Assembly: GCA_965221125.1 (NCBI GenBank)
Contig: CBDCRW010000004.1
Coordinates: 736,001-800,000, forward strand
DNA: 64,000 nucleotides
Reading direction: 5' to 3'
From: Alphaproteobacteria bacterium
GTDB taxonomy: Bacteria; Pseudomonadota; Alphaproteobacteria; UBA828
Shown: positions 1 to 32,421 of the stretch, piece by piece
Layout: every line of letters starts with the position of its first letter
Numbering within the stretch: the stretch's first letter is position 1
Translations under genes and position numbers: made by a program
Notes under the pieces: model-generated
Database searches by the model: none
What the model was told of the DNA's origin: nothing
What the model saw: only the letters and a program-made list of their open reading frames with translations

Positions 1-337
1 TAAAATCCGAGGTACACCAGCGTGCGGAATTCGAGGGCCAGAGACCCCGCTCCTCGACCCGTTCGAGCAGGGTCTTGCCGGACGCGACGGGGGCGAACAT
101 CAGCGGAACGCCAAGGGGAAGAGTGGCCTCGATGTGCTCGACTGTGCCAGGCCACTCGACCTCGCCAAGCGGGGCGTGAACCGCCATGAGCTGGTCGCGC
201 GGAACCATCCGCGACAGCAGGATGGTCATGGCCTGTGAGTCCTTGCCGCCTGAGTGGTTGATGACCACAAGGGCGCCGGTGCGGATCATTTCGTTGCACC
301 GCGGCGGTACGGGAACTTCGGCGAGGCGGTCGGACAT
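1..337 (-). CDS. PAPS-reductase-family (PP-loop) protein, 5' part, runs off the window edge
   Basis: Minus strand from ATG at 337 reads MSDRLAEVPVPPRCNEMIRTGALVVINHSGGKDSQAM...WPSNSARWCTSDF; close paralogue of 25905-26762. Confidence 0.85.
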   Translation of the reverse strand, partial: MSDRLAEVPVPPRCNEMIRTGALVVINHSGGKDSQAMTILLSRMVPRDQLMAVHAPLGEVEWPGTVEHIEATLPLGVPLMFAPVASGKTLLERVEERGLWPSNSARWCTSDF

Positions 338-657
338 GGATCGGTCTCCCCGGCGGTGGCGCGAGAGGCCGCTCCGCGGCCCCCGGAAGGCGCCCCGCCG
401 AGGCCGGGCTCTGCCTCCTGCTGGCGCTACGCCCACCGGGCGGCGGTCGCTGCGGGTGTGAGACCGGAAGCGGCGAGACCGCGACAGGGAATCTGCCCGG
501 GCCGGCAGCGGGGGGATCGGCGATAGCGAACTGGAGGCGCGGCGCGGGCGTTGTTGCGAGGCGCTGCACCGGAGTGCTAACTGCCGGTCGTGAGTTGCGT
601 GGGCGGTCGCGCTACGGCGTTGCGGGCAATGCGAGACAGAGGGGGTTGGAAACCGTC

Positions 658-1987: not shown

Positions 1988-2203
1988 ATGAGTACGGGCC
2001 GGGAACCAACGTTTTCAGAATTGGTACGGCTGAGTACGTCGGCCCACCAGGACGGAGCGCGAACCCTGTGGGTACCGCTACGGAATCAATTCGATCGAGA
2101 GGGGCCTGACGCGGCAAGAGAATATCTGCTGGCGCAACGACAGCGGCTCGTGGAGCAAGTGGAGAAACAGCTTGATCAGCTCGATGGGCGAATAGATGGC
2201 TAA
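1988..2203 (+). CDS. Small helical hypothetical protein coupled to the SMC-like ATPase
   Basis: GGAGG RBS before ATG 1988; overlaps the next gene by 8 nt. Confidence 0.7.
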   Translation: MSTGREPTFSELVRLSTSAHQDGARTLWVPLRNQFDREGPDAAREYLLAQRQRLVEQVEKQLDQLDGRIDG

Positions 2204-5930: not shown

Positions 5931-6730
5931 GGCCGCAGTTCCTCGAGCGCGTGCTGCAGGTGGTCGGCACTGACGGTCCTCGCCTCGTCGAGAGCGGCGG
6001 CGGAGAGCGCGTAGTGGGCGATGCGGTTGATCTGGCGCGGCAGGCCGCGCGCGCCCTGGAACAGGGCCTCGACGGCGGGCTCTTCGAACAGCGGCAGTTC
6101 GCATCCCGCGAGCCTGAGGCGGTGCTTGATGTAAGCGTCGACCTCGTCGCGGTCGAGACCGCTCAGGTGGTGGCGGACGACGAGGCGCTGGCTGAGGGAT
6201 TCGTGCATGGCCATGGCCAGGCGGCGCCTGAGCTCGGTCAGACCGACGAGGACGAGGCACAGGCGCTGCTCTGCATCCATGGCGAAGTTGGTGAGCAGGC
6301 GCAGGTCCTCAAGGACGTCGTTGCGCAGATGATGGGCCTCGTCGATGACGAGGACCGGCAGCTGCTTGGCCTCGGTGACGAGGCGGGAGATCTCGTTTCG
6401 GATGGCCTGATAGGCCGAGGCGCGGGAGCGCTCGATGGGCAGGCCGATCTCCCACGCGATCGCCTTGTACATGTCGAGCACGTTGCCCGTGGTCAGCGAG
6501 ACGTAGTGGACCCGGTAGAGGCCTGGATGAAGCTGCGCGGTCAGATGCCGGCACACGGTGGTCTTGCCGGAGCCCACCTCGCCGGTGAGCAGGCCGATGC
6601 CGCGCAGGTCGATGAGGTGGCCGAGCCTGGCCTCGGCCTCGCGGCGCGCGTTGGACTCGAACAGCTCGTCGGTCTCTGCCGGGGTCTCGAAGGGCAGGCG
6701 GGTGAAGGCGAAGTGGCGCAGGTACATCAC
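5927..6730 (-). CDS. ExeA-like AAA+ transposition helper ATPase
   Basis: GEVGSGKT, VIDEAH, GLPRQIN; coupled to the transposase. Confidence 0.88.
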   Translation of the reverse strand: MMYLRHFAFTRLPFETPAETDELFESNARREAEARLGHLIDLRGIGLLTGEVGSGKTTVCRHLTAQLHPGLYRVHYVSLTTGNVLDMYKAIAWEIGLPIERSRASAYQAIRNEISRLVTEAKQLPVLVIDEAHHLRNDVLEDLRLLTNFAMDAEQRLCLVLVGLTELRRRLAMAMHESLSQRLVVRHHLSGLDRDEVDAYIKHRLRLAGCELPLFEEPAVEALFQGARGLPRQINRIAHYALSAAALDEARTVSADHLQHALEELRP

Positions 6731-8055
6731 TCGTCCTCCTTCTTGTCCTTGAGGTTGCGCATGGCCAGCGGCGAGGGCGGAGGCTCGGGCGCCGGATCTT
6801 CGGCCTCGATCTCCCTGGCCGGGTAGGTGCGCCTGACGGCGGTATTGGCGTAGGCGTCGAGAGGGCTGGCCTTGCCGGCCGGCTTGCCGTCATGGACCAC
6901 GTCGAGAGGGCGCGAGGGCGGCGCGGCCGGGTCGTAGCGCAGGATGACGTTCTGACCCACCAGGAGGGCGTCGACCTCGTAGACGCGGCCGTTCAGACTA
7001 ACGGTGCGGTCCTTGTAGACACGGCGCCTGGCCTCGAAGAGGAACAGATCGTCGAGGTCCATGGTGGCGTCGGGATAGCGCACGCCGGCCGAGGCCAGCG
7101 CCCACTGCTCAAGCGGGGTGCGCCCCTCGTCGAGGCCACGATGCGGGCTGTTGTGATACTCCCCCTCGATCCAGGCCCAGAGGCTGCGGTTGAGCGCCTC
7201 CAGGCTGTCGACGTCATCGCCGAGGTGGCGGAGCCAGCCGGCCCGGAGGGTGCGGAAGAAGCGCTCGATCTTACCCTTTCCCGCTGGCTGGAACGCCCTT
7301 GCGTGAATCAACGCAACGCCGAGCCTGGCGCAGACCAGGGAGAGATGACGGGAGCGGTAGGCGCTTCCGTTGTCGACGTACAAGCGGGCCGGGAGGCCGC
7401 GCCGGATCAGCGCGTCCTTGAACACCGGCAGGAACGCCGCAGTGTTCTCCGCCATGGCGAAGGCGGCGAACGGGATGACGCGGGTGGCGTCGTCGATGAA
7501 GGCGATCAGGTAGGTCTTGCGCCGGGTTCGGCCGTGCCGGACCTTGGGTCCGTGCATGACGTCGCTCATCCACATCTCGCCGGCATGCCGGAAGGCGAAG
7601 CGGCGGCGATCCGCCCCGTCGGGCGGCTTCTTGTCGAACAGGCCCTCGCGGCTGAAGAGGCGGTGCACGGTGGACGAGGCGAGCGGGTGGTCGATACCCT
7701 CCTCCTTGACCTTCTGGATGATGGCGCGAACCGACAATGCGTCGTTCTCGGTCTTCAGCGCGATGAGGCGCTCGGCGACCTCGGGCGGCAGCCGCCGGGG
7801 CTTCCCCCGGTCGGTGCGGGGCTTGGGGTAGAGCGCGTCGAAGCCGCCGTAGCGGTAGTCCTTGATCCAGCGCCGCATGGTCTCGGCGGCGACCCGGGTC
7901 CTGGTGGTTCCGGGGATCGTGTAGGTCTTCTCGGCTTTGGCGCGCATCATCGCGCCGGCACCCGGTGCACCCACGGGCAGATGCACCAGATCGGCGATGA
8001 CGTCGTATCGGAAGAGCGCGATCTGTTGGCGAAGGTCGTCGTCTGAGCTGTTCAT
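6727..8055 (-). CDS. DDE (rve/Mu-like) transposase
   Basis: WMSD...FIDDATR...YVDNGSAY...GKGKIERFF; N-terminal HTH; Mu-like C-terminus. Confidence 0.93.
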   Translation of the reverse strand: MNSSDDDLRQQIALFRYDVIADLVHLPVGAPGAGAMMRAKAEKTYTIPGTTRTRVAAETMRRWIKDYRYGGFDALYPKPRTDRGKPRRLPPEVAERLIALKTENDALSVRAIIQKVKEEGIDHPLASSTVHRLFSREGLFDKKPPDGADRRRFAFRHAGEMWMSDVMHGPKVRHGRTRRKTYLIAFIDDATRVIPFAAFAMAENTAAFLPVFKDALIRRGLPARLYVDNGSAYRSRHLSLVCARLGVALIHARAFQPAGKGKIERFFRTLRAGWLRHLGDDVDSLEALNRSLWAWIEGEYHNSPHRGLDEGRTPLEQWALASAGVRYPDATMDLDDLFLFEARRRVYKDRTVSLNGRVYEVDALLVGQNVILRYDPAAPPSRPLDVVHDGKPAGKASPLDAYANTAVRRTYPAREIEAEDPAPEPPPSPLAMRNLKDKKEDE

Positions 8056-10711: not shown

Positions 10712-11173
10712 ATGACTTCAGATAGTCCGCCATTCAGGCTTTCCCTCTGGAAAGATTACGTGCCGCAACGAACACTTATTGCGACGCAAGTTGAAGGAAA
10801 TAGCCAGGAACCGAAGGTAATTGTTCAAGAAAATTTACAAGAAGAGATTTACTCGTGGCATACACTAGAAGATCCGTTTGGTGGTGTTACCGACTCCGAG
10901 CTACGACAAAAGCTTCGCCACGCTCTTGTGGAGCGCTTGAATCCGTCACTTCCACCGTCTCAGAGGGGTATTGAAGTACTCGAGGAATTCGCACGGCTAG
11001 CGGGAAAGGCTATCGTCGATCGTAAGGTAGAATGGGTCTGGGGACACGGTGCTTCCCAGCATAACGATGCGATGGTAGAGCCACTAAACTCCTTATTGGC
11101 ACTCAAGTTGCATGTGGATTGGCTTCTGGCCTGCTTCATTGCGCGACCCGGAATCTCGGTGTCGGTACGATGA
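10712..11173 (+). CDS. Hypothetical protein, first gene of the cargo cluster
   Basis: ORF 10688..11173; GAGGA RBS before ATG 10712; ATGA overlap with the next gene. Confidence 0.7.
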   Translation: MTSDSPPFRLSLWKDYVPQRTLIATQVEGNSQEPKVIVQENLQEEIYSWHTLEDPFGGVTDSELRQKLRHALVERLNPSLPPSQRGIEVLEEFARLAGKAIVDRKVEWVWGHGASQHNDAMVEPLNSLLALKLHVDWLLACFIARPGISVSVR

Positions 11174-13218
11174 TGTCCTTTCATCTGAATTCACCCGCAG
11201 AAGCAGAAGCGGCGATAGCTAATCTTCTCAAGGAGGAATATTCCAAGCCAAATGGTCAATGTTCCATTTGCGTTCGGGACGATGGTGCCTTTTTGAACCA
11301 AGAATGGCTCAATCTTGGTGTCCTTTACTTTCCTGACTTGCCAAAGGATTCCGATGACTTGGAAGAGTATGAGGCGTGGCAAAATCTTGTGAAACTCGGA
11401 GCGTTCGAGTGGCATATAGCGGACTATAAGGCGATCGAAGAAAAATTAGCGCATTTGCTTGGCCATGAGATCGGCAAGGGTGATTTTCATTTGGGTACTC
11501 TAACTCGCGATATCTCATGTATTGCGGTGAGGACCGGCTTGTTGCTGCCTACATTCGATCCGGCGGCGCTGGACGAGATGCCCTATCGTCGATCAACGAC
11601 TATCATATCAGATACATCTGGTGTAGTACAGGGTGGTCTGGACTTTGTTGCCTCACATCTGAGTCCTGCTGCCAGAATAAAGGTTCCTTCAATCGTGCAT
11701 ATGGAGTTGGTTGGCGCCGCTGAGAACTACTTTAGTCTTCGCAGAGCTTCTAAGACCAAGAATGCCGCGCGCCGCCGTAAGGAACTTGTGGAACACTTAA
11801 AGAGCCAAGGCGGACAACGCTCATTGCTGCGTCTGGAGCTTCACCAAAGTACGGAAGTCGAGCGCACGTTTTTGCTCGGCGACCCGCTGCGGGAAGCTTT
11901 TGCAACAGATAACGACCGTGAATTGTCTGGTCTAAACATTAGTTTGGCAATTAGGTCTTACGCAGACCGTCTAATTTTAGAAGCGGCCCGTCAACATCAA
12001 GCGCATATGGGCCCCGGGCATGAAGTGCGACTACTAACCGCGGATCAGGGTTTGGCTAGAATGGCGTTAGCAGAGGGCATCCGGCCTTTATATTTCGGGA
12101 CAATTGACGCGGGAAGATTTTTTGGCAACTGCTTGACTGGAAGAACTTTTGACCCGTACCAAGGATCGGTGCAAGGGATCTCAATAGCGACGGTACTTTG
12201 GGAATTTGCTACGGCGTTTGGTTCAGCGCGACTGCAAGGGAAACAGACGGGGAGTGAGTTTTGCGTTTCGGCGCTTGGAGAGGATATGTCGTGGGCACCA
12301 TATCATTCCTTAGAAGACCTGCTTTGGTGTCGTCGGACCAATGGCGCGCCCAAGACCGACCCATCCAAAGTTGCCAAGAGGGAGGCTCGGGCCAAGGGGG
12401 ATGATCACGGCGAGGGGGTGGCTAAGCGGCCGAGCCGTACTACGACCTACCGACGCTTTGATGTCTCGAAGTTAGTCCGGCTGGTTTGCGAGCTGGATGA
12501 CGTACAGAAAATGGACGAAGAGGCAGTTGTAGGGATTGTTCAAACGAAGCATACCCGAGGGTTCCAGGAATACGAACGGTTTTTGTTGTCAGGAGGATTT
12601 ATCTCAGAGTCAGGAGGAATTTGGACTGCGGAGCCTCCCCTAATGGATATGTCCGCGGCGCTTCGGAACGAGAACGTGGAGGCTGTTCGTGACTTGTTGG
12701 GCGCTACACCTTCTTTCAGCGACTTCATGGGACTGCTTGGGAATGCAGGCCTCGGGGAGCCGTTGGATACGGAGTTCGCCGGTCGGAGCTCATCCACCTA
12801 TCGAACGTTGGGCGAAATTGTGCATGTCTGCGCCGCGGTTCGGGGAAAGGGGATTTACTCGACGGCGACCGTGCCGGATGCAGAGGGCTTTGCGGAGATC
12901 GCGCTAAAGCGGTTTCGCCAGCTCGACAAAGGCGACGGGTTGGTGTCCACGGGCAAGTGGCTGGAAACGCTTGTTGCAGAGGACGGCATTCATCCCGAAG
13001 TAGCTCGGAAGCTATTGGAGGAAGCAAGACAAAGACGCTTGTTGCGAAGGTCGACAGAGGGATCGACGATGCAAATGCGGTATAGAACGCACATCGTGCA
13101 TATCTTGCGGGTGGTATCCGGTGTTCCGACGGTAGTTCCTGTGCACCTGTATAGGGGAGATTACCTGATTCAGGGCAAGGCCAGTGCGAGCTTGCGGATT
13201 GAAGGAGGCGATCAATGA
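11170..13218 (+). CDS. PIN-domain protein with long C-terminal extension
   Basis: PIN-type acidic motifs: IISDTS, KVPSIVHMEL, YADRLILE, LLTADQGLARMA. Confidence 0.7.
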   Translation: MMSFHLNSPAEAEAAIANLLKEEYSKPNGQCSICVRDDGAFLNQEWLNLGVLYFPDLPKDSDDLEEYEAWQNLVKLGAFEWHIADYKAIEEKLAHLLGHEIGKGDFHLGTLTRDISCIAVRTGLLLPTFDPAALDEMPYRRSTTIISDTSGVVQGGLDFVASHLSPAARIKVPSIVHMELVGAAENYFSLRRASKTKNAARRRKELVEHLKSQGGQRSLLRLELHQSTEVERTFLLGDPLREAFATDNDRELSGLNISLAIRSYADRLILEAARQHQAHMGPGHEVRLLTADQGLARMALAEGIRPLYFGTIDAGRFFGNCLTGRTFDPYQGSVQGISIATVLWEFATAFGSARLQGKQTGSEFCVSALGEDMSWAPYHSLEDLLWCRRTNGAPKTDPSKVAKREARAKGDDHGEGVAKRPSRTTTYRRFDVSKLVRLVCELDDVQKMDEEAVVGIVQTKHTRGFQEYERFLLSGGFISESGGIWTAEPPLMDMSAALRNENVEAVRDLLGATPSFSDFMGLLGNAGLGEPLDTEFAGRSSSTYRTLGEIVHVCAAVRGKGIYSTATVPDAEGFAEIALKRFRQLDKGDGLVSTGKWLETLVAEDGIHPEVARKLLEEARQRRLLRRSTEGSTMQMRYRTHIVHILRVVSGVPTVVPVHLYRGDYLIQGKASASLRIEGGDQ

Positions 13219-14336
13219 GCCTACGAGATAAGCTTCAGCAGGCGCGACGCTCCAGCGAGGGCTCGCCACGGGGGATGTTTGAGCGCTTCGGAGTAACAGC
13301 GAATCCGTTCCCTGCGGCAAGCCAAACGTCGGGGAATCCTCATTATCCGCAAGAAGAAGCAGATGAACTGGCGGAAACGCAAATTGCTGCGTTCGTAAGG
13401 GACAATAGGTCACAGAGCTTGACTGTCGTCGGTTCTCAAGGAGTAGGAAAGACGAATTTTCTAAATTATTTTGAAGAACAATTGACTGATGTCGCAGACG
13501 AATTAGAGGGTTACTATGTTGTTCGATACCTAGCGGATCCTGAAAATACGTTTGATGGCACAATTCACAAATTGCTTCAAGAGTTAGGCGCAGAGCATTT
13601 TGCGAGACTAGCAGAATCGTTGAGTGAGGATCAAAATGCGATACGAGTGGCACGAAGTCAAGATCTTCAGACAGCACTACGTAGGCTTGCAGAAACAGAT
13701 GAGAATGAAGATAGAGCAGAAACTATTGAGTTGATGCTGGCTTGGCTGTTAGGACACCGAGTCCTAAAGATACATCGGGAATGGCTAGGAGTGAATTTTC
13801 GACAAGATACAGTCGAGGCAAAAACTGCGACTTTTCGTGATATCGTAGAAGTGAGCAGCGAAGCGGGAATTCTAAAGGGAATTTTTTTGCTGTTAGACGA
13901 ACTGGAAAAGCAGGATGGCGTTTTGGGCCCGAGAGCAGTGGTAAGATACCTGTCGGCAATCAGGGCGATTATTGATGCCTTGCCGCGAGGCTTGTTTTTG
14001 ATGCTGGCGGTGACGCCGGATGCGCTATTGCGATACACTGCTGCACTGCCAGCGTTACGCGGAAGACTGGAAAATCAGGTAGTATTGGAAGCTTTGCAAG
14101 ATGAAGAGGAAGCAGTAGAACTGGCAGAGTTCTATATCGACAAGGCTCGCGAGAAGGCAAGGGAAGATCGTAATCGGAGGGGAGGAAGTGAAGAAATCTT
14201 GTCGAGGCGTAAGATTGAGAAATGTTTTCAGACGCTTTGGGAACGAGCGGAGGAAAGAGGAGATGACGGTGTCAGGCAACGAGAGTTCTTGAACGCACTT
14301 CATCTTCGTACCGAAAAAGAGCTGCGGGGAGATTGA
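13215..14336 (+). CDS. P-loop AAA+ ATPase
   Basis: NPFP, Walker A GSQGVGKT, Walker B LLLDELE, Arg-finger-like ALRGRL; ATGA overlap. Confidence 0.85.
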   Translation: MSLRDKLQQARRSSEGSPRGMFERFGVTANPFPAASQTSGNPHYPQEEADELAETQIAAFVRDNRSQSLTVVGSQGVGKTNFLNYFEEQLTDVADELEGYYVVRYLADPENTFDGTIHKLLQELGAEHFARLAESLSEDQNAIRVARSQDLQTALRRLAETDENEDRAETIELMLAWLLGHRVLKIHREWLGVNFRQDTVEAKTATFRDIVEVSSEAGILKGIFLLLDELEKQDGVLGPRAVVRYLSAIRAIIDALPRGLFLMLAVTPDALLRYTAALPALRGRLENQVVLEALQDEEEAVELAEFYIDKAREKAREDRNRRGGSEEILSRRKIEKCFQTLWERAEERGDDGVRQREFLNALHLRTEKELRGD

Positions 14337-14369: not shown

Positions 14370-15845
14370 ATGAGTGGTGTGAGCGAGGACGGGATGGCGG
14401 CTGTAGCAATCGAAAAACAAGATGGAAGCGCGGTCGGGAGAAATACGCCAAATTCTCAGCAAGGGGCACAAACGAAGAGGACAGGGAGGGGATTCGTGAT
14501 AAGCGGTGCTCCAAGGCTGGTAGTGTCTGGGCGAATTCGTAGGGAGTCCGAGAAGCACGATCCAGATCGGGAATATCGGTTTGGTTATGCTGATGAACAC
14601 CATTCGGAATTACCGCACGTGGTCAAGTTCTCGGGTGGCAGATCGAGTGGCATGCTGCTGTTGACACTCTTGGCAAATGACATACTGAAGGCCGAACGAG
14701 GGGATGTCGTGTTGTTCAATAATACGGCAAGCGAGCATCCCCAGACTTACGACTTTGTAAGAGAGTGTAAGGCAGTAACGGAGCAGTACGGTATTCCTTT
14801 CTACCTTGTGGAGTTTCAGACCTATGAAGACGCCCGCAAGGGCGAGTGGACACGGCTGCCGAGCTACCGCCTCGTGAATAGCAAGCCGTGGTCAGAAACG
14901 AATCCGGACGGGGTCCATTGGCGGGGCGAGGTTTTCGAGGAGGTGATGTCGTGGTCGGGGTTCGTGCCAAACCAGTTCCGGCGTATCTGCACGACTAACA
15001 TGAAGTTGGGTGCAACCCGTATGTTCCTGCGCGACTGGTTGGCTTGCAAAGAGTCGATTCCGCGGCTTGGACACTTCGGATCGGGGTGCCGTATAGACGG
15101 GAAGGCTATGTATGCGCGTCACAGGCGCAACGGCGGAGAGGTGCCCGAAGAAATCTACATTGCCAAGAAGCGGTATGGCTGGAGCCGTCCGTATGTCCGG
15201 CCAGAACAGCGATACGAGAGTTTTTCGAAGGCATGGCGACCGTTCGAAAACAAGTGGCTAGCGGGCAAGGCGCATGGCGACCTGGCGGTGTTTGGCAAGG
15301 GAGGCGTCGAGTATGTGGCGTTTGTCGGCCTGCGTTGCGATGAGCCCGCAAGAGTCGGAAGGGTGAAGGAACGCAATAATGGGCCCGAAGCATCCGGATA
15401 CGATGGCGAGCATGTGTACATGCCCCTCGTGGACATGCACGTGGCGGCAGCGGATGTGAATGCGTTTTGGGCCCGACAGGAGTTGGACCTATGTTTGCCC
15501 CCGGACAGTGGGCTCTCGAACTGTGTGTACTGCTTCTTGAAAGGCGGTGCGACGCTGCGGAAAGTGCAACGTGAAATGGCGGGCGCGAAGCGCCAGGAAG
15601 CTCGGCTAGGCTACGGTCCACTCGACGGGACGCCGTGCGACGTCGCATGGTGGCAACGCATGGAAGAGGTGTACGGGCGCGACCTCGTAGCGGAGGAGCG
15701 GAAAATTCAGTCGGAGTTGGAGCATGATTTCCTGGGCTTCTTCGGTGCGGGAAGCCGATTTACGTATCGGTTGCTCGGAGAAGCCGACGAATCGGAGTTG
15801 GAGCAGTTCGACGCCAGTTTGTTGCCCTGCGATTGCACGGACTAG
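14370..15845 (+). CDS. Cys-rich PP-loop / PAPS-reductase-like protein, putative Fe-S sulfur-insertion enzyme (alternative start 14394)
   Basis: KFSGGRSSG PP-loop, FNNTASEHP, RICTTNMK, GLRCDE, NCVYCFLK, terminal CDCTD. Confidence 0.8.
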   Translation: MSGVSEDGMAAVAIEKQDGSAVGRNTPNSQQGAQTKRTGRGFVISGAPRLVVSGRIRRESEKHDPDREYRFGYADEHHSELPHVVKFSGGRSSGMLLLTLLANDILKAERGDVVLFNNTASEHPQTYDFVRECKAVTEQYGIPFYLVEFQTYEDARKGEWTRLPSYRLVNSKPWSETNPDGVHWRGEVFEEVMSWSGFVPNQFRRICTTNMKLGATRMFLRDWLACKESIPRLGHFGSGCRIDGKAMYARHRRNGGEVPEEIYIAKKRYGWSRPYVRPEQRYESFSKAWRPFENKWLAGKAHGDLAVFGKGGVEYVAFVGLRCDEPARVGRVKERNNGPEASGYDGEHVYMPLVDMHVAAADVNAFWARQELDLCLPPDSGLSNCVYCFLKGGATLRKVQREMAGAKRQEARLGYGPLDGTPCDVAWWQRMEEVYGRDLVAEERKIQSELEHDFLGFFGAGSRFTYRLLGEADESELEQFDASLLPCDCTD

Positions 15846-15847
15846 AC

Positions 15848-16987
15848 GTGGCGGAACGGCCGGTCTATCTGGATTGTCAAGCCACGACGCCGCCTGACCC
15901 GAGAGTGGTCACGGCGATAGTCGAAGCGTTTGATGCATTCGGGAACCCACACGGGCGTCAACACGTATACGGGCGAACGGCGGCGGACGCCATAGACGTG
16001 GCTCGGAGTCGGGTGGCCGGACTTCTGAACACGTACCCCAATCGAATCGTATTCACATCCGGAGCAACGGAATCCTGCAACCTCGCACTGCGGGGCGTGG
16101 CGCGCGCCGCCGCTCCCAAGCGACGGCGTATCATTACACTCGCTACAGAACATGCGGCGGTGCTCGAGACTGTAGAGGATCTAGGACGACACGGTTTCGA
16201 GGCGATCGTCTTGCCGGTCAGGCCGGACGGGCTCGTAGACCTCGATTGTCTCGACCAGGTGGTCGACGACGAGACGCTGATCGTTTCCGTCATGGCAGTG
16301 AACAACGAAATCGGTGTGATCCAGCCGCTCGCCAAAGTCGCTTCGATCTGCCGGCGCTATGGCGCACTGTTCCATACTGATGCAACGCAAGCGCCCGCTC
16401 GCATCGAAGTGGATGTCGAGACTTGGGGAGCCGACCTCTTGTCGATTTCGTCGCACAAGCTGTACGGACCAAAGGGCATTGGGGCGCTGTACGTGGCCGA
16501 TGACGGATTGCTTGGACCCACGTTGACCGGAGGTGGTCAAGAGCGTGGCATGCGGTCGGGAACAGTGCCGACGGAGCTCGCGTGCGGCTTCGGAGAGGCT
16601 GCGGAGCTGGCCGGAGACGAGCGGCCTGCTGACGCCGAGCGGATGACTCGTCTTGCCGCCAAGTTGCGGACCGGTATCGATGCGATGGAGGCGGATGTAC
16701 GCTATTTCGGTTCAGACAAGGAGCGGGCGCCTGGGACGTTAAACTTTGGGTTCCCTGGGATCTCCGGCGACAAGCTCGTTGCGATGGTGGAGACCGAGAT
16801 TGCGATCTCGAGCGCCTCCGCGTGTTCCTCCGGAACTGCAGGAGTTTCTCATGTGCTAGCCGCGCTTGGTTGCGGCCGGTCTGAAGCACTTACCGGCGTG
16901 CGTGTGGGATTGGGCCGATTTACGACGGAGACAGACATCGAGATTGCTTTGACGGCGATTGGTCGGGCGGTAGGTACGGCTGCATGA
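15848..16987 (+). CDS. Cysteine desulfurase (IscS/DndA-like)
   Basis: YLDCQATT, FTSGATES, PLP lysine in HKLYGPKG, catalytic Cys in SSASACSS. Confidence 0.93.
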   Translation: MAERPVYLDCQATTPPDPRVVTAIVEAFDAFGNPHGRQHVYGRTAADAIDVARSRVAGLLNTYPNRIVFTSGATESCNLALRGVARAAAPKRRRIITLATEHAAVLETVEDLGRHGFEAIVLPVRPDGLVDLDCLDQVVDDETLIVSVMAVNNEIGVIQPLAKVASICRRYGALFHTDATQAPARIEVDVETWGADLLSISSHKLYGPKGIGALYVADDGLLGPTLTGGGQERGMRSGTVPTELACGFGEAAELAGDERPADAERMTRLAAKLRTGIDAMEADVRYFGSDKERAPGTLNFGFPGISGDKLVAMVETEIAISSASACSSGTAGVSHVLAALGCGRSEALTGVRVGLGRFTTETDIEIALTAIGRAVGTAA

Positions 16988-17000
16988 AGAGATTGGGACG

Positions 17001-19313
17001 ATGGGATTGAAGCGAGCGATCATCGACGAGATGAAGGTGAAGCAGCTGCGCAAGGCGGTGCAGCAACTGGAATTGGCTGTTGATAGCTATAGGGACAAGG
17101 AATCACTTGCCGGTGCTCTCAGAAAGTCGCGTCGAGCTACAGCCGAGACGTTGGTGGAATTCCTGTCCGAGAAGGACGTAAAGCGGCTGTGCGATCGTCA
17201 GGGGGTTGAGTCGAGGGGACGTCGGCGGGAGCTGATAGCGCGGCTGTTGGAGTCAACGGGTACAGCCTCTTCAGCCGGGGACTCTGGGGAGACGCAAAGA
17301 CCAAGGGCAGGAACGAACGCAAGAAGGCGCCGGACGCGGGGCCGATCGAGTAAGGCTGCACCTGACCTCCTGTTCGGCCACAGTACGGATCGTACTGGGT
17401 TCACGCCGGCAGGAATCGCCGCGTTTTCGGATCTCAGACCGGCTGCGGTAGTGCGGGAACTCATTCAGAACTCGTTGGACGCAGCCTTGATTGAGGCTAA
17501 CGAAGCCTGCGCGGTCGTAAGGTTTGAGCGAAGTACGTGCACGTTAGAGGAAATCCCGGGAATCGAAAGTTACCGTACGGCGTTTGAGCGAGCTGTGGAG
17601 GAGCAAACTCCTTCTGGTAGTGCACGCTCCGTAGTTGAGCGGATACGGCGGACATTACTAGAGGAATCGCACGATCTGCTGTGTGTTATCGACAACGGAG
17701 TGGGGCTTGACGGCAGGCGAATGTCGGCTTTGCTGAGTGACGGGGTGAGCGACAAAGGGGGCAACGCTTCTGGGACTTTCGGCAACGGACACTCGGCGGT
17801 GCTTCCCGCATCGAACCTCCGGTATGTGATGTACGGTGGGCTAACGGCCGATGGTCGCACCTATGGTGCCGGCCAAGCGGTGCTGGCGTCGCACCGGGAC
17901 GAGGGTGATTGGCGCAGTCGATCTGGGCGCGGGGTATATCTGGAGTCATTTAAGCCTAGTGCGGTCGACGTACCGTTCACTCTGGCCTCTGAAGATGCAA
18001 TCCCGCCGATGGTCGTGTCCGCGATTAACAGGATTCGTGCTTCGTACGGACACGGGGCGGCGGTGGTTATCCCGGCGTTTAATAACTTTGAGCACGTGCA
18101 ATCTTTGCGAGAGGCAGTGTTCAAGGCAGCTAGTTTTAACTTCTTTCAGGCGATTCAGGAAGGACGTCTGGTGGTGGAGGTGGAGGATCAGGAGGAAAGC
18201 GGTGTACTCGACACGCTGAGGTTAAGGGAAGTGCTTACGCCGTATCGCGACGAAATGCGCTCTGGTCGTTCGGGTGCGTTTCTTTCCGGACGAAAGGCAA
18301 ATGAAGCCTACGAAACTCTCGTCAATGGGGAGGAACACGAGATTGAGACTACGCAGGGAAACGTAGCGGTGCGCTTGCTTTGCCGGGAAACGGGTCGGCG
18401 TAGCGTGGGGCTATGCAGGAACGGGATGTGGATTACGGATGACCTGCCGATGTTTCAGAACGCGTTTGCGGATCGACAGCCATTTCAGGCGCTGATCCTA
18501 CTCACCTCGGATCGCGAGGATGGTTTCTATGAACTAATTCGAGAGGCGGAGACGCCGCTCCACGATAAGCTGGCGCCGAAACAGATGGACCCAGTTCGAA
18601 GAAAGGCTCTTCGGGACGCGCTGCGTGAGATTCGGGATGGGATCGCGGAATTGGTCCCGCCTTCGACAGAGGACGTTTACAGCCCAAAGGACATCTTGGC
18701 CTTTCAGTTTGAAGATGTAGAGGGGCAGGGGCGAGGTGGCCGCCAGCCGTCCTTTTGGGGCCGGGTGGGAAGCACTCGACGGTCGACGCTGGTGAGGCGG
18801 AAGACAGGGAAGCGGGAGGCTGGAGGAACCGGGGAAGGCGGCGGCGGCGGAGGAGGACGCAAGAAGCGTGAGGGACGGATTGTGACGGAGCGGATATTCC
18901 GGATCGCTTCGGTGCCCACCGACGAAGGTGGGCGCACAGTTCATGTGGAATGTACAGAGGAGTTTGAGGACGCAGAATTGCGGGTATTCGTAGACGAGAA
19001 CGTGGATGCGACTTGCGATCGGCAAACACGTGCTCAGGCGGCGGCGGTGTTGCTGTCGAACGTGAAGGTGGATGGACGCCCGTTGTCTGAGGAAGAACTG
19101 ATCGGAAACGACGACGGGACTGTGGGTGCGAAGTTGGGTTGCCTGCAGGCAAATGCGCGGGTCGTGGTGGAGACCGAGTATGCGATACCTGCAGCGGCTA
19201 TGCGTCTCCCAAGTGGACAAGAGCCCGCACTTCGGTTCGAGGTACAAAGCAGTCGACGGGTTTCATCCAAGGACAGTAGCGAAATTGATGACGAGGTGCT
19301 GTCCGATGGATGA
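17001..19313 (+). CDS. GHKL (HATPase/MORC-like) ATPase with N-terminal tandem SAP/HEH-like domains
   Basis: VVRELIQNSLDA, IDNGVGL, GTFGNG; N-terminal LSEKDVKRLCDRQGVESRGRRRELIARL. Confidence 0.75.
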   Translation: MGLKRAIIDEMKVKQLRKAVQQLELAVDSYRDKESLAGALRKSRRATAETLVEFLSEKDVKRLCDRQGVESRGRRRELIARLLESTGTASSAGDSGETQRPRAGTNARRRRTRGRSSKAAPDLLFGHSTDRTGFTPAGIAAFSDLRPAAVVRELIQNSLDAALIEANEACAVVRFERSTCTLEEIPGIESYRTAFERAVEEQTPSGSARSVVERIRRTLLEESHDLLCVIDNGVGLDGRRMSALLSDGVSDKGGNASGTFGNGHSAVLPASNLRYVMYGGLTADGRTYGAGQAVLASHRDEGDWRSRSGRGVYLESFKPSAVDVPFTLASEDAIPPMVVSAINRIRASYGHGAAVVIPAFNNFEHVQSLREAVFKAASFNFFQAIQEGRLVVEVEDQEESGVLDTLRLREVLTPYRDEMRSGRSGAFLSGRKANEAYETLVNGEEHEIETTQGNVAVRLLCRETGRRSVGLCRNGMWITDDLPMFQNAFADRQPFQALILLTSDREDGFYELIREAETPLHDKLAPKQMDPVRRKALRDALREIRDGIAELVPPSTEDVYSPKDILAFQFEDVEGQGRGGRQPSFWGRVGSTRRSTLVRRKTGKREAGGTGEGGGGGGGRKKREGRIVTERIFRIASVPTDEGGRTVHVECTEEFEDAELRVFVDENVDATCDRQTRAQAAAVLLSNVKVDGRPLSEEELIGNDDGTVGAKLGCLQANARVVVETEYAIPAAAMRLPSGQEPALRFEVQSSRRVSSKDSSEIDDEVLSDG

Positions 19314-20169
19314 GGTTGTGACAGAGGCGAGATCGCCAAATGCCGCGGTTCGGGGGCATGCGTTTCCGTCGCTGGAGTCGGGAAATACCTCTTTTCCGGA
19401 TGGACGATACGTAGTGGGATTCGAAGCTGGGGCTGACGCGAGTTCGTTTACTGTGAGGCATCGCATTGAGGGGGCTCCGCTGATTAACGACGTGATTACA
19501 GGCGGGCTCGCACAGTTCGTCTGCACGGTGGCCTCCCCAAACTCTTCGTATCGAGTAAGCCATGTGTCGGATGCCAGCTCCCACGTGATTGGTTGGCAAA
19601 GCGTGGATCTTGGCGAGCCGCCGATGTTCACGCCGATGGTAGTTGTTGCAAAACCGTTTACAAGGACGCTGGAATCGGCAAGAGACGGTGTCCACGAGCT
19701 CTGGCACGGTCGGACAGTCGCATTCCAACGAGGCATGAGGCTTGCGTTGAGCGATGTCGTGCTGATGCGTTCATCGGTTTTGAATATGTTGCTGTTCGAG
19801 CGGGATCCCGCGCTTTCAAATGGCGAGTTCCGTGTTGAGGCGGAGGATCGAGAGGGATTTCGATTTCGTGCGTATCTTGCCCCCGATCTTCACCAATTCC
19901 TAAGGTATGACACTGAAGACTTGCGGCGAAGTCACATCGTAACGCACATAGTGAGCGCGTGCTTTGGCGTGCTGAAGGCGGATTATGCGGAAGACGAGGA
20001 GGAAGACGGCGGTTGGCGGTCCTATCGCGGTCTCCAGGCTTTGGGGGAGATGTTGAAGGAACACGGTTTGCCGCACTGGTCAGAGGACGACTTCTCGCCG
20101 GAGTTGGCTGCCACCAAACTTTACCCGCACCGGGTCGATGAATCTCCCGGTTCAGCCGGAGAGGACTGA
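19306..20169 (+). CDS. Hypothetical protein, partner of the GHKL ATPase
   Basis: ATG 19306 overlaps the previous stop by 8 nt; beta-rich N-terminal half. Confidence 0.7.
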   Translation: MDEVVTEARSPNAAVRGHAFPSLESGNTSFPDGRYVVGFEAGADASSFTVRHRIEGAPLINDVITGGLAQFVCTVASPNSSYRVSHVSDASSHVIGWQSVDLGEPPMFTPMVVVAKPFTRTLESARDGVHELWHGRTVAFQRGMRLALSDVVLMRSSVLNMLLFERDPALSNGEFRVEAEDREGFRFRAYLAPDLHQFLRYDTEDLRRSHIVTHIVSACFGVLKADYAEDEEEDGGWRSYRGLQALGEMLKEHGLPHWSEDDFSPELAATKLYPHRVDESPGSAGED

Positions 20170-20177
20170 GACAATCC

Positions 20178-21056
20178 GTGTACGCTGAGTTCGATGATGC
20201 GGGATACACCAAACTACGTCGATCGCTGATCCGAAAGGCGGCCAAGGGTTCTATTGCTCAACGGTCGTTTCTTGAGGCGGTACGCGATACCGGTAGGTTT
20301 TTGGCGCACATGAAGGACGTCGTAGGCGTACAGGAAGGTGAGGAACTGGAGCCGCTGGCGGATCGAATGTCGGAGGCAGAGTTCGGGAATCCACCTTCTG
20401 ACACCGAGCGGCGCCTGTTCGAGGCCTGGGGTGGGTTGACACCGAGAGTTGCTTGTCGAACGGCATTTTGGGCACGCGTGACCTACCGGCACATTGAGAA
20501 CGGGCGGATAGAATCATCGTTCTTAGCGGCCAATGGTGGTGGCAACGTGAGCGGCGTACAGCGCATCGATGAAGCATTGAGTTCCACTGGCGAGAAAGCG
20601 ACTTTGGAGCTGGATAGATGCGTACGAACGGTGCTCAGGCGGCTCGGTGGATTGCCTGAGGCGCGCGGGAATCGATCAGTCTACGTGAACTGCCCACTAG
20701 CACGGGCTTGGTGGCGGGAACGTTTGGTCGCGGAGATGGCGGGGGACGATGGTGACGATCTGGAACGGCAGATTCGCGCCGTGGTGCATCCCGAGAGCCA
20801 ACAATATTGGGAAGAGTTGGTAACTTTCGTTGTGTCGAGAAACTCGGTGTTCGGTTCGGTATCGGTTCGAGACACCTTAATTCGCACCCTCGCCATGGTC
20901 TTGGATGATAATCCTGATTCGCCAGTGCGAACGGCTGATGAACTAAGGCGTGTATGCCGATCTGTGAGCTCCATACAGGCGTCGGTCGAACTGAGTGTCG
21001 TGCCACCCCAGGAGGTGCAAACCATGATGCGGGGAATTGTCGAGGCTGTGGCGTAG
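20178..21056 (+). CDS. Hypothetical helical protein, possibly DUF6339-like
   Basis: LTPRVACRTAFWARVT and CPLARAWW recall DUF6339 motifs from memory (unverified). Confidence 0.6.
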   Translation: MYAEFDDAGYTKLRRSLIRKAAKGSIAQRSFLEAVRDTGRFLAHMKDVVGVQEGEELEPLADRMSEAEFGNPPSDTERRLFEAWGGLTPRVACRTAFWARVTYRHIENGRIESSFLAANGGGNVSGVQRIDEALSSTGEKATLELDRCVRTVLRRLGGLPEARGNRSVYVNCPLARAWWRERLVAEMAGDDGDDLERQIRAVVHPESQQYWEELVTFVVSRNSVFGSVSVRDTLIRTLAMVLDDNPDSPVRTADELRRVCRSVSSIQASVELSVVPPQEVQTMMRGIVEAVA

Positions 21057-22880: not shown

Positions 22881-24104
22881 CTACCCGTTGCGCCGATTAC
22901 GTTCCGCCTCTGCCATTTTTGGCGTGAAGACGGTGAATGTGTCCTGCATGATCGTCTTGTCCGCGCAGGGGTGATGCAGGCCCAACAGGTCGTTTTCACC
23001 AATTACCCGATATACCGTGTAGCCCTCGCCCACACCCTTCAGGCACATTGGAGTGATGTCTTTCTTGACGTACCGGAGGGTGTGATCGAAGCGGGTGGAC
23101 GAGCCCCCTCGGTCGAGCGGACATTCGATCATGGCCCTTTGCAAGCCGGTGCCGTCCAGGCCCTCTTCCGACTCTTCCGAACGGTCAACGACTCTTTCGA
23201 ATAGTGCTCGGCCTACAGTGACAACGCACGGCAGGGCGAATTTGGTCGCTCGGAAGAATCGATCCACCTCCCAACCGATGTAATCGGTTCGAAATGCCGT
23301 GATTAGCCGTCTCCCATCTGCCATGAGGCTGCCTGCGTGGAGGCGGTTCCCCAGCTCGATGAAGTCCTCGTTGTTCGAGCTTTCCCCGGTACCGATGATT
23401 TCCGGCAGGCGCTCCGTCACGAAATCGCACCGTGGCCCGCTGACCTCGAAGGCGTCGTCCAGAATGTCCATATAGAACTTGAGCGGCAGATTCCTGATCT
23501 CGAACGGTCGGTCGCCAGGCTCTTCGTCGTCCGCGGCGGACGTCCAAAAGATCGCACGGCCGGCGACAGCGAGGGCGGAATGGAACAGGCGGGCTGCCAA
23601 AGACCGCAGCTTCCACAACTCGTCCTCGCCGACCTCGTACAGCAGCCAGATCTCGTCTCCGATGCCCTTGACCACAAAGGCATGCTTCCAATCCCAATCC
23701 AGCCCGCAGTGCCCGTCTTGAAACAGCTGCGTGTAGAATCTCCACTCTGACAGCAGGAATTGCCGGTGGAACGCCTTGTACCATTCGGCTAGTTCCTCGT
23801 CGTTGCGCGCGCACGCCCTCATTGTCGCCTTTGCCTCCGTGGAGCCGCAGACGTCCATCGAGATCGATATCACCGTCGTTCGACCGCGGCTCTCCTCCTT
23901 TGGTTCGGGTCCGGGCAATTGCGCACGCAACTCCTGGAGGAGGCCACGACGTTCGGGTTCGGGCTCCCGGCTTGCCATGAAGTCGAGGCACCTCGCCATC
24001 CGCTCCCGATCGTTCGGGGATGTCACAGCAGCTTCGGCAGCACATGCTGCGAGCGCGGCGTCCCTGCTGACTTCGTCGTCTCCAGATCTCCCGTGCACCG
24101 CCAT
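22881..24104 (-). CDS. Class III nucleotide-cyclase-like protein, probably 5'-truncated
   Basis: SMDVCGST, KGIGDE, DYIGWEVDRFFR match the cyclase motif pattern. Confidence 0.7.
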   Translation of the reverse strand: MAVHGRSGDDEVSRDAALAACAAEAAVTSPNDRERMARCLDFMASREPEPERRGLLQELRAQLPGPEPKEESRGRTTVISISMDVCGSTEAKATMRACARNDEELAEWYKAFHRQFLLSEWRFYTQLFQDGHCGLDWDWKHAFVVKGIGDEIWLLYEVGEDELWKLRSLAARLFHSALAVAGRAIFWTSAADDEEPGDRPFEIRNLPLKFYMDILDDAFEVSGPRCDFVTERLPEIIGTGESSNNEDFIELGNRLHAGSLMADGRRLITAFRTDYIGWEVDRFFRATKFALPCVVTVGRALFERVVDRSEESEEGLDGTGLQRAMIECPLDRGGSSTRFDHTLRYVKKDITPMCLKGVGEGYTVYRVIGENDLLGLHHPCADKTIMQDTFTVFTPKMAEAERNRRNG

Positions 24105-24108
24105 GGCC

Positions 24109-25371
24109 TCAAGGGCGATCCAGGAATGGGGCCCTTTTGGGCGAAGTGCCTCGACAATGTCTGCAGTCTCCGATGCGCGACCAGTACGTGGCCGCCGTCG
24201 GGCGCACGAGCTTCGCGAAGTCGATGTCGAGCCGGGCCACCGTGGCTTCGAGCTCGGGCCGGGCCTGGGGCTCGAAGGCGAGCTGGCCCTTCACCGTGCG
24301 CGCGACGCAGGCCGCGAACAGCGCCTGCTTGTCGGGCTCGGGCAAGGCCCTGAGCGCCGCGAAGGATTCGCCATCGTCTGCGATTGTCAGCCAGTCGAAC
24401 GGCAGGTGCGAGCGGTCCGCCAGCATCGCCTCGCCCGGCGACCAGTCCGCGAAATCCTCGTCGTTCATGCGGATGTTGGGCCGGTCCGGGGTCTCCTTGA
24501 CCGCGATGTCGAGGGCGTGGTCGTGGTAGCCCGGCGCGAACACCGAGCGGCCCATCTGGAACAGCGCGAGGTCGAAGGCGGCCTCGAAGTCGCCGGCGAG
24601 ATAGGCCTTGATGAGCGCGGTGCGGATCGCGCGCTGGTCGTCGGCGTGGCCGATGCCGACGCCCGCCTCCTTGCGCGCCTCGGCCTCGCGGTCCCTGGGC
24701 GACGCCATCGGCGTCGAGACGGACGGACCGGAGGTGTGAACGCCATGACCGGCAGTGTGGACGTCGTGGGCAGCTGCGTCCGGGTCGTGGCCATTGCCGG
24801 CCGAGGTTGCCGCGCTGCCGGGCCCCGCCTGCTTCGGCATGTCCTCGGGCTTCACCAGCCCCTGAACGACCTGAAGCGAGCCGTCCTGGGCGACGGTGAC
24901 GATGCAGCCCGCCATGCGGTGGACGATCGAGCGGTCCTGCTCGCGGTTGCCACAGGCGATGATCGCCGCCCCGGGCGGAGCCTCGTACTCGCCGATCTTG
25001 CGCTCCAGGCAGAACTGGAAAAGCGCGACCTGCACCATGGGGACGGAGGACGGGAGCTCGTCGAGGTTGACGAGGAACTGCGAGACGCTGTCGGTCGGCG
25101 GAAGGAATCCGGGCGGCGCCCAGCGTGTGCGGCCGTGCTCGTCGCGCCACGGGATGCCGCGCAGGTCCACGGGATCGAGGAGGGGGCCGCGGATGTCGAT
25201 GTACTCGTAGCCGAGCCGGTCGGCGGTCTGGTTCGCGACCTGACTCTTTCCGGTTCCCGGGCCGCCCCAGACCATGCAGGGCTGGCGGGCCTTGACCAGG
25301 GTGGCGAGGACTTCGGCGAGCTCGCTCGGGCGCAGCGTGTAGTCGGCGGAGATGGTTTCGGGAAGGGTCAT
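24109..25371 (-). pseudogene. In-frame chimera: MoxR-like AAA ATPase N-terminus fused to a ParB-like protein C-terminal part
   Basis: WGGPGTGKS, LDEL, ACGNR up to VHRM, then AGCIVTVAQDGSL...RPTAATYWSRI typical of ICE/plasmid ParB tails. Confidence 0.65.
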
Positions 25372-25628
25372 GGGCGGTCTCCGGATGGCGGGGAAGCGGG
25401 GCGGCCCGGACATCCTCCGAGCCTCGTCTGAACGCGCCCCGGAAGGGCCCACTCCCCTCCCGTGGGAGTTGCGGCAGGCGGGAGAAGCGGGTTACGCGCG
25501 TGGAGGGCGACCGGGCGAGAGTCGGGGCAAGGGCTGGTGGACAGCAGTGGCCGGTCGCGAGGGCGTCGAAACGGTCGGTAGTGCCAGGCCCATTGCCGCC
25601 CCGGCAGGCAGGGTGCTAGATATCGGCC

Positions 25629-25919
25629 ATGCGAACCTGGAGCGACAACATCGAGGCCGTCGCGCGCGCCCTCTGCGAGAAGATGCTGGCGCATGACGGC
25701 GTCAGCGAGGAGCAGCTCGCCGCCGACGTCGACATGTGGTGGCACCAGGTAGCGGCGGAACTTGAGTGCGGGGTCATCGACGAGGCCGGCGAGTATGTCG
25801 GCGGCGAGATCGACGTGAAGCGCAAGATGGCCGGCTACCGCGACTGGATGCGCCGCCATCCCGGGAGCCGCGCGGTCTGGGAGACCGCCCGACACGGGGC
25901 GCCGCTACCTCGAAACTGA
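25629..25919 (+). CDS. Hypothetical protein
   Basis: 96-aa ORF with high-GC codon pattern. Confidence 0.6.
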   Translation: MRTWSDNIEAVARALCEKMLAHDGVSEEQLAADVDMWWHQVAAELECGVIDEAGEYVGGEIDVKRKMAGYRDWMRRHPGSRAVWETARHGAPLPRN

Positions 25920-26762: not shown

Positions 26763-27014
26763 GGATCGGCCTCTCCGGTGGCGACGCGGGGTCCGCTCTT
26801 CGGCCCCCTGGAATCGCCCGGAGGACGCCGGCCTCGAACGCCTGACGCCGAACCGCAGGACCATGCCGTGCGAAACGCCGGAGGCGCCGCTCGGGCAGGA
26901 TGGGCGCGGAATGACCGCTGCCGGAATCGAAATGGCCGGCGCTTCGTGCTAACCGTGGGCGCCGGCCTCGGCTATGGTCTGTAGGGAGAACTGGACAACG
27001 CAGGGAGAGAGCGG

Positions 27015-32383: not shown

Positions 32384-32421
32384 GCAATGACTGTCGTGGC
32401 TTTGGCAAGCGGGGTGCAGCC

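Follow-up and report, generated by a model that had tools for sequence, protein, structure and literature searches.

A conserved five-gene module with a divergent SspD-type PP-loop enzyme, a cysteine desulfurase and a GHKL ATPase as a candidate DNA sulfur-modification system

Four systems for DNA phosphorothioation, dnd, ssp, tdp and brxPCZL, are named as established in the accessible sections of PMC12914056. The same sections assign BrxP, as a DNA phosphorothioation enzyme, to the SspD lineage, and describe a survey for new systems that started from DndC or SspD by BLAST (E ≤ 1e-5) and required a P-loop NTPase gene in the neighbourhood. Parts of the Dnd, Ssp and BREX type 4 systems are also described in the searched portions of PMC10853773 and PMC12839542. 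Here we analysed a stretch of 64,000 nucleotides from an Alphaproteobacteria bacterium (assembly GCA_965221125.1, contig CBDCRW010000004.1, positions 736,001 to 800,000 of the forward strand; hereafter the window), in which a gene for a PP-loop (PAPS-reductase-like) enzyme is followed directly by one for a cysteine desulfurase. This pair is the front of a conserved, operon-like module of five genes (14370-21056, + strand). The most likely function of the module is to place a sulfur mark on the DNA of its own cell, for phage defence, and we consider it probable, by some distance short of certain, that it is a phosphorothioation writer of a new architecture, the fifth beside the four named above.

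The first gene (14370..15845, +, TAG stop at 15843-15845) encodes a divergent, enlarged SspD-type PP-loop enzyme of 491 residues. A preliminary description of the locus had pointed out a P-loop of the form SGGRSS, the motifs RICT and NCVYC, a terminal CDC cluster and a stop codon 2 nucleotides ahead of an intact desulfurase gene, all of which are borne out by the translation. SGGRSS occupies residues 88-93, RICT residues 205-208 (with C207) and NCVYC residues 384-388 (with C385 and C388), the protein ends in LPCDCTD (C487 and C489), and the TAG that ends at 15845 is followed by a GTG at 15848. The start of the enzyme is uncertain: conservation sets in at about residue 42, and residues 1-36 have a predicted local distance difference test value (pLDDT) below 50 in an AlphaFold model whose pLDDT is 89.8. 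A stored version of 408 residues begins at residue 84, and its start is probably mis-set, since it drops residues 42-83, which are conserved among homologues and confidently folded in the model.

An exhaustive search of representatives clustered at 50% identity returned 1012 relatives at E ≤ 0.001, of which 459 also passed 1e-10 and 138 passed 1e-30. Of 8000 candidates scored in a word-indexed search, 1228 proteins reached E ≤ 0.001. The family is large and has no name: neither a precomputed Pfam domain nor a usable name was present among the 120 members listed, and a look-up of eight family clusters yielded no usable name either. When motifs were counted in a set of 188 family proteins of at least 400 residues, the P-loop read SGGRSS in 170, SGGRTS in 11 and SGGSSS in one, was not found in six and was SGGKDS in none. 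RxCT occurred in all 188, NCxxC in 187 and CxC within the last eight residues in 181, and SGGR[ST]S, RxCT, NCxxC and the terminal CxC were found jointly in 175 of the 188. Since the motifs are held across these members and none has SGGKDS, the SGGR[ST]S loop is a trait of the family and no local mutation. C207, C385, C388, C487 and C489, together with about 25 further positions, are invariant in an alignment of 46 sequences (A1). Three records of a plasmid collection matched the enzyme, none of them over 80% of its length, and the 24 matching records of a phage collection (tblastn, about 30% identity) likewise included none that spans 80% of the protein.

The family was compared with described enzymes by hidden Markov model (HMM) scores and by profile-profile alignment, with most outgroups represented by one or two sequences and with under 175 columns that could be aligned. 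As SspD reference we used a PAPS-reductase protein of 272 residues, encoded on a Hymenobacter plasmid together with SspA, a DUF4007 protein and a large ATPase, and aligned 23 of its homologues (A6). Comparison of A1 with A6 by hhalign gave a probability of 96.75% (E 3.1e-10, 171 columns), pairing SGGRSS of the family with SGGKDS of SspD, RxCT with RRWCT, GLRADE with GLRADE and SNCVxCF with SGCFFCF, so that the order of motifs (PP-loop, RxCT, GLRADE, CxxC, C-terminal cysteine pair) is common to both. The cysteines of a Roseobacter plasmid SspD (278 residues) are C89, C174/C177 and C273/C276; as SspD, too, ends in a conserved cysteine pair, both groups have a 1+2+2 layout, whereas that of DndC (C145, C273, C284, C291 and C294) differs. 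Among 46 family members searched with PADLOC, 44 matched SspD (best E 1.6e-13), 31 BrxP and seven DndC at E ≤ 0.01, and 28 of the 46 matched Pfam PAPS_reduct. On the family HMM the Roseobacter and Hymenobacter SspD proteins scored 45.3 and 33.5 bits, DndC 21.9, a 319-residue paralogue from the window 13.7, Escherichia coli CysH 5.3, a truncated paralogue from the window 3.9 and E. coli TtcA -1.1.

Alongside this kinship there are clear differences from SspD. SspD proteins have about 270-280 residues, compared with about 450 conserved in the family, owing to two insertions (approximately residues 150-185 and 225-315 of the PP-loop enzyme) that have no counterpart in SspD. SGGKDS is invariant in A6 as against SGGR[ST]S in the family, the C-terminal pair is CxxC in SspD and CxC here, and SspD homologues carry the precomputed Pfam domain PF01507, which the top 120 family members lack. 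At the level of the system, SspB (DUF4007) and SspC (a BrxC-type AAA+ protein) are replaced by a GHKL ATPase, a protein of 287 residues and a DUF6339-family protein. Among solved structures the SspD profile finds a single relative, PptA (PDB 21fy chain C, 270 residues, E 3.3e-8), which the profile of the PP-loop family falls short of reaching; no paper pairing PptA with the term 'PAPS reductase' was found in the open-access literature or bioRxiv.

Other described enzymes lie further away. BrxP of BREX type 4 (brxPCZL) is matched over the PP-loop region by the 31 members mentioned, and the match of the window's own enzyme (E 2.4e-5) covers the PP-loop only (residues 84-150); unlike that system, the module has no DUF4007 fusion and no BrxC, BrxZ, BrxL, PglZ or Lon-like gene according to Pfam and PADLOC. 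With DndC and DndA the module shares the pairing of a PP-loop enzyme with a dedicated desulfurase as well as PbeA/PbeC and DndB-like neighbours, but the DndC cysteine set is unlike that of the family, and DndD and DndE are missing. TdpC of TdpABC, which the accessible sections of PMC12914056 present as a single gene in extreme thermophiles, is set apart by that description only.

Searches of the PDB by sequence and by family-alignment profile gave chance-level matches only. Only the first 70 or so residues of the model fold like PP-loop enzymes (APS reductase, TrmU, LarE), the top PDB fold match being APS reductase 2goy (E 9.6e-3, about 70 residues) and TtuA a weak one (E 6.2e-2). The sole fold matches at E ≤ 1e-3 were phage 'PAPS reductase' proteins, A0A2I7R4U1 (E 7.7e-9, TM score 0.41/0.54) and a Vibrio phage protein (E 1.3e-5), although such phage proteins have just 200-390 residues. 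The suggestion that the enzyme resembles phage PAPS-reductase-type proteins more than DndC is thus upheld by the PADLOC counts, the HMM scores and these fold matches. A grouping with metabolic CysH, named in advance as part of one result that would speak against the preliminary description, was not found, given 5.3 bits for CysH and no match to any NCBIfam CysH model at E ≤ 0.01; the TtcA, ThiI and MnmA models were likewise unmatched at this threshold. As judged by sequence comparison, the PP-loop enzyme appears to be a distant, enlarged relative of SspD, and neither a CysH nor a tRNA thiolase.

The second gene (15848..16987, +) encodes a class I (IscS/NifS/DndA/SspA-type) cysteine desulfurase. 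Its reading frame opens with a TTG at 15833, but GTG 15848 is the likelier start, since homologues align from residue 6-10 of the TTG-opened open reading frame (ORF). The protein is full length, with a Pfam Aminotran_5 match (E 3.9e-71) over residues 11-370 and 369 of 371 profile positions, and PADLOC assigns it to SspA (E 5.3e-129) and DndA (E 1.9e-127), so that an SspA/DndA-type desulfurase adjoins the PP-loop enzyme as in Ssp. It carries SSHKLYGPKG and SSASACSSG, which we take to be the pyridoxal-phosphate lysine loop and the catalytic-cysteine loop of class I desulfurases. Scores below the NCBIfam equivalog cut-offs for both IscS (387.8 against 548) and DndA (340.9 against 480) mark it as a separate branch. 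The earlier proposal of a PP-loop enzyme that uses ATP and has a desulfurase of its own is supported by homology, by the five conserved cysteines and by the adjacency of the two genes in 72 of 80 related loci, and from its cysteines the enzyme may carry an Fe-S cluster. Another desulfurase, 42% identical to that of the window, is encoded on the Streptomyces plasmid NZ_CP108441.1 (L081, 5873-9173) with three hypothetical genes before it and a phage portal gene after it, possibly as part of another mobile sulfur-transfer set.

To describe the module as a whole, the best 80 of 268 stretches encoding relatives of the PP-loop enzyme (one genome per species) were fetched with 10-kb flanks, and genes were scored as present by tblastn at E ≤ 1e-5. 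The PP-loop enzyme was found in 80 loci, the desulfurase in 72, the GHKL ATPase in 78, the 287-residue protein in 75 and the DUF6339 protein in 73. The full set of five is present in 65 of the 80, and in 63 loci it lies in identical order, on one strand and within 12 kb. Eight of the remaining 15 loci lack the desulfurase only, four are cut by a contig end, one is without the last gene and two hold the first two genes only. The junctions in the window are tight, with gaps of 2 and 13 nucleotides, an overlap of 8 (ATG 19306 and TGA 19311-19313) and a final gap of 8, and scans for promoters and terminators over 10-23 kb gave no more than the shuffled expectation. All 80 best loci come from metagenome-assembled genomes, whose titles span many phyla. 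They include Poriferihabitaceae and Entotheonella, which we take to be sponge-associated taxa, and the module may be enriched in communities of this type.

The third gene (17001..19313, +) encodes a GHKL (Bergerat-fold) ATPase of 770 residues. Across 17 sequences no change is seen at E153/N157/D160, D231-N232-G233-x-G235 and G258/G261/G263, which correspond to what we take to be the N-box (ExxxNxxD), the G1 motif (DxGxG) and the G2 glycine loop of GHKL proteins. The homologues have about 665 residues and align from about residue 120 of the 770-residue protein. Pfam HATPase matches are weak and below the cut-off in nine of 16 homologues, and the best profile matches in the PDB, also weak, are HSP90 (E 0.0095) and MORC3 (E 0.28). 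All 17 homologues match PDC-M33A, a candidate defence protein of PADLOC, with a best E of 7.3e-40.

The fourth gene (19306..20169, +) starts at ATG 19306, the mechanically called ORF opening at GTG 19126, and encodes a protein of 287 residues that belongs to no family. Its N-terminal part is beta-rich and its C-terminal part helical; Pfam gave no match in 13 of 13 homologues, and the model (pLDDT 89.5) had no PDB fold match at E ≤ 1e-3, just generic beta-sandwich resemblances. The fifth gene (20178..21056, +) encodes a DUF6339-family protein of 292 residues, which is predicted to dock on the PP-loop enzyme. The score of the window protein against PF19866 is 20.5 bits, below the gathering score of 23.2, while 12 of 15 homologues match at E ≤ 0.05 and four of 15 lie above the cut-off; a DUF6339 profile found nothing in the PDB at E ≤ 1. 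The two families are linked by a natural fusion of 560 residues (L032:18433-20115) that joins a 287-like and a DUF6339-like domain. This fusion had also caused a merger in clustering, and a paralogy of the 347-residue and 292-residue ORFs was ruled out (E 0.25). A protein of 513 residues at L080:19201-20742 carries a 287-like domain at its C-terminus. Both genes lie downstream of a DUF262/GmrSD_N gene, a position from which the 287-like and DUF6339-like domains may also serve the reader side.

The physical relation between the proteins was studied by a three-chain prediction with residues 72-491 of the PP-loop enzyme (as scored partner), the 287-residue protein and the DUF6339 protein. The complex reached a score of 0.73, compared with 0.00 for the best of three controls, with a partner pLDDT of at least 76; agreement of contacts between runs was at least 0%. 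Of 157 solved complexes 116 reach the mark against which such scores are read, as do two of 215 mismatched pairs, a calibration that is only rough for a three-chain job with custom alignments. Predicted contacts on the PP-loop enzyme involve residues 154-160, 234-253 and 299-305, which lie inside the two insertions, and on the DUF6339 protein residues 62-76, 125-135, 204-206 and 246-247. It is plausible on this model that the insertions absent from SspD form a docking platform for the DUF6339 protein.

Around the constant module the neighbours vary. At least one of six recurrent families was found within 10 kb in 52 of the 80 loci: DUF262/GmrSD_N proteins in 25, PbeA in 17, PbeC in seven, a DndB-like DGQHR protein in nine, an HNH-repeat protein in 13 and a 657-residue protein with a sigma70_r4 motif in 17. 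In seven loci the DndB-like protein is accompanied by a partner of 173 residues. On plasmid pROLI83 a canonical SspA-SspB-SspC-SspD set is followed by a DndB-like protein and a small partner, and the 173-residue and 176-residue partners match each other at E 2e-14. The DndB-like protein and its partner are therefore an accessory pair that stands beside both a known phosphorothioation system and the module described here. The partners at L065:16363-16884 and L086:8474-9004 show a G[IV]YAF...Y[VI]G...R...Y pattern, which to our eye resembles the GIY-YIG nuclease motif, with no match in Pfam.

The nature of the substrate is indicated by four family members (P0210, P0206, P0190 and P0418) whose N-terminus is naturally joined to a C5-cytosine DNA methylase. 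The Pfam DNA_methylase match of P0210 (E 3.9e-70) spans the whole methylase, none of the four fusions has lost a family motif, and their scores on the family HMM are 400-440 bits. These fusions make DNA the likely substrate of the family. Neither the 80 loci nor the window contain a C5-cytosine methylase of the fusion type.

Altogether, a backbone phosphorothioate is the most probable mark, as indicated by the closest relatives, by the arrangement of the cysteines and by the partner modules (PbeA/PbeC and the DndB-like pair of the Ssp plasmid). In the route that we infer from homology and genomic context, the desulfurase would draw sulfur from L-cysteine as a persulfide and hand it to the PP-loop enzyme, whose five invariant cysteines would serve to bind a cluster or to pass the sulfur on. 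The enzyme would spend ATP on activating a target group of the DNA, after which the sulfur would displace the activated oxygen. The GHKL, 287-residue and DUF6339 proteins, in place of SspB/SspC or DndD/DndE, would locate and hold the DNA site, with the DUF6339 protein docking onto the two family-specific insertions. Reader or restriction modules would differ from genome to genome.

Several observations weigh against a phosphorothioation writer. The proposed sulfur acceptor follows from nothing closer than distant homology, and the substrate could differ because the Lys-Asp of SGGKDS is changed to Arg-Ser/Thr throughout the family and about 170 residues are inserted. With 19.2 bits the window enzyme itself stays under the Pfam PAPS_reduct cut-off of 22.5, its PADLOC SspD match (E 2.9e-7) spans residues 194-227 only, and the fold search of its model gave no PDB match at E ≤ 1e-3. 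No module protein matched SspB, SspC, DndD, DndE or BrxC/Z/L in PADLOC. Comparison with TdpC is indirect only, no PDB chain having matched the family by sequence, profile or fold at E ≤ 1e-3. The partner modules seen elsewhere are all missing from the window itself, and the PbeABCD partner is not specific to phosphorothioation, because systems of this type also pair with cytosine methylases according to the searched portions of PMC10853773. Two loci, L020 and L036, carry the PP-loop gene and the desulfurase only, despite ample downstream sequence. The complex prediction, run three times, returned 0.73, 0.75 and, in one run, 0.00.

The preliminary description had favoured a thiolated base over a backbone phosphorothioate as the product, a proposal that is not the best supported one, as relatives, cysteine layout and partners favour phosphorothioation. 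The module would then thiolate a DNA base such as cytosine, the PP-loop enzyme adenylating the base carbonyl in the manner of TtcA and TtuA before sulfur replaces it, which we hold to be unlikely. SGGR[ST]S in 181 of the 188 full-length members, with SGGKDS never seen, would suit a changed chemistry, as would the two insertions of about 170 residues absent from SspD and the lack of SspB/SspC and of DndD/DndE in the module. Although the tRNA thiolase folds of TrmU and TtuA, together with LarE, are among the weak fold matches, TtcA ranks lowest on the family HMM (SspD 45.3 bits, TtcA -1.1), the cysteines are arranged as in SspD and the partner modules are those known beside dnd and ssp. C5-cytosine DNA methylases are base-flipping enzymes, and their four natural fusions at the family N-terminus would fit a base as target; however, the fused methylase can equally be read as a sequence-specific targeting domain or as the source of a dual mark, and its kind occurs in none of the 80 loci or the window. 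What keeps a thio-base in view, at a low probability, is the unusual P-loop together with the insertions and the fusions to a methylase. A variant of this idea, to which we give the same small weight, is an SspD-derived writer in which the changed PP-loop and the insertions have shifted the activated atom, so that the mark is not the classical phosphorothioate, and which some lineages have joined to a C5-cytosine methylase.

Somewhat less probable again is a defence system of sensor and effector built around the GHKL ATPase, similar to PDC-M33A, in which the PP-loop enzyme and the desulfurase would act on a nucleotide, by modification or depletion, or damage the nucleic acid of an invader. The matches of 17 of 17 GHKL homologues to PDC-M33A (best E 7.3e-40) are in line with this, the module shares a defence island with further defence genes, a type III restriction-modification system among them, and 28 of the 80 loci have none of the six recurrent neighbour families within 10 kb. 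Yet a constant core with variable nuclease partners is what one expects of a writer whose readers can be exchanged, and a fusion to a DNA methylase suits a writer. Moreover, according to the accessible sections of PMC12914056, a dedicated desulfurase beside an SspD-type enzyme characterises the modification half in the dnd, ssp and brx type 4 systems. Ordinary sulfur metabolism or thiolation of RNA or a cofactor, with the enzyme acting as CysH-like reductase, tRNA thiolase or in the biosynthesis of a thio-cofactor or natural product, is very improbable. The PP-loop superfamily covers all such roles, APS reductase 2goy heads the PDB fold matches (E 9.6e-3, about 70 residues) and the desulfurase is IscS-like. 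Against this, CysH scores 5.3 bits and the NCBIfam CysH, TtcA, ThiI and MnmA models are unmatched at E ≤ 0.01, and a place in a low-GC island with up to 80% identity to proteins of genomes titled as other phyla is no housekeeping pattern. A GHKL ATPase and two proteins of no named function make up the constant neighbourhood, nucleases and helicases the variable one, and biosynthetic genes do not recur.

The guanine-plus-cytosine (GC) fraction is 0.53-0.63 over 10-22 kb, compared with about 0.70 in the flanks from 40 kb on, and the module is located in this low-GC defence island, which was apparently acquired horizontally. Identities of up to 80% between the PP-loop protein and proteins of metagenome-assembled genomes titled as other phyla fit horizontal transfer. 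No tRNA genes were found in the window. Directly upstream of the module, 33 nucleotides away, lie genes for a 699-residue protein (borderline PIN_4) and a 373-residue BrxC_BrxD-like/ORC-like AAA protein (11119-14336, +). As core parts similar to SspC they were rejected, being present in none of the 80 loci, and they could be a partner module of this genome's own or a separate system. The two ORFs downstream of the module were likewise found in none of the 80 loci.

A degenerate SGGKDS pattern has two matches in the window against 0.04 expected. One belongs to a PP-loop protein of 319 residues (25905-26864, - strand) that matches BrxP (E 2.5e-18) and SspD (E 1.4e-11) and has RWCT and CxxC without the C-terminal cysteine pair. 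It is part of a second PP-loop gene set (22881-26864, -) together with a 447-residue protein (weak AAA match) and a 407-residue protein (no matches), which may be another small sulfur-modification or BREX-like system. The other lies in an edge-truncated PP-loop ORF of 145 residues (2..436, -) with SGGKDS and ARWCTSD; the longer ORF at 3..569 does not have SGGKDS in its frame and gave no Pfam or PADLOC match. The preliminary description had spoken of two SGGKDS paralogues acting on the backbone. Both exist, but their action on the backbone had been assumed, and it is for the 319-residue protein only that matches to BrxP and SspD were shown.

To the right of the module the window encodes a type III methylase and restriction enzyme for defence (27789-32383), an HNH protein (32422-33426) whose nuclease domain bears a weak likeness to the 'phosphorothioated DNA-binding restriction endonuclease' model (43 bits against a cut-off of 180), and a second GHKL protein (33841-36132) adjoining a metallophosphatase-TPR protein similar to DS8/PDC-S60 (36122-37876). 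The defence genes within 27789-37876, like the second PP-loop gene set, share the low-GC stretch of the module. The two GHKL proteins of the window were rejected as close paralogues, only the N-box stretch aligning with a best local E of 0.054. Left of the island are an ORF resembling the N-terminus of Avs2 (1241-1810), an LmuB-like SMC/ABC ATPase (2196-4274), an AAA_25/MarR protein (4890-6260) and a Mu-type rve transposase (6727-8055).

The PP-loop family would escape both filters of the survey as given in the accessible sections of PMC12914056, because its members are too divergent for the BLAST step and the ATPase of the module is of the GHKL type. The module and the terms GHKL, MORC, HSP90, sacsin and DUF6339 do not appear in the searched portions of PMC10853773 and PMC12839542. 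Searches of open-access papers and bioRxiv found no paper on DUF6339 or PDC-M33 and no description combining phosphorothioate, SspD and GHKL, the supplements of PMC12914056 and PMC10853773 lying outside that search. In the same sources the nearest hit to phosphorothioate and desulfurase together with GHKL-type terms was a single mention of MORC in a defence-systems survey of 2013, and a fusion of a PAPS reductase with a cytosine methylase was not named in titles or the beginnings of abstracts. The five-gene module was thus not found described in print, and it may be described elsewhere.

If the module makes a phosphorothioate, it would represent a fifth architecture for this modification, in which the sulfur-inserting enzyme can be coupled to a very different DNA-handling machine, and it would help to separate what is essential to the chemistry from what serves site selection. 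If the mark is another one, the module would stand for a new DNA modification, with the methylase fusions as a possible single-polypeptide form. A thio-base, if true, would be the first made enzymatically in DNA, with a GHKL-driven targeting machinery of its own.

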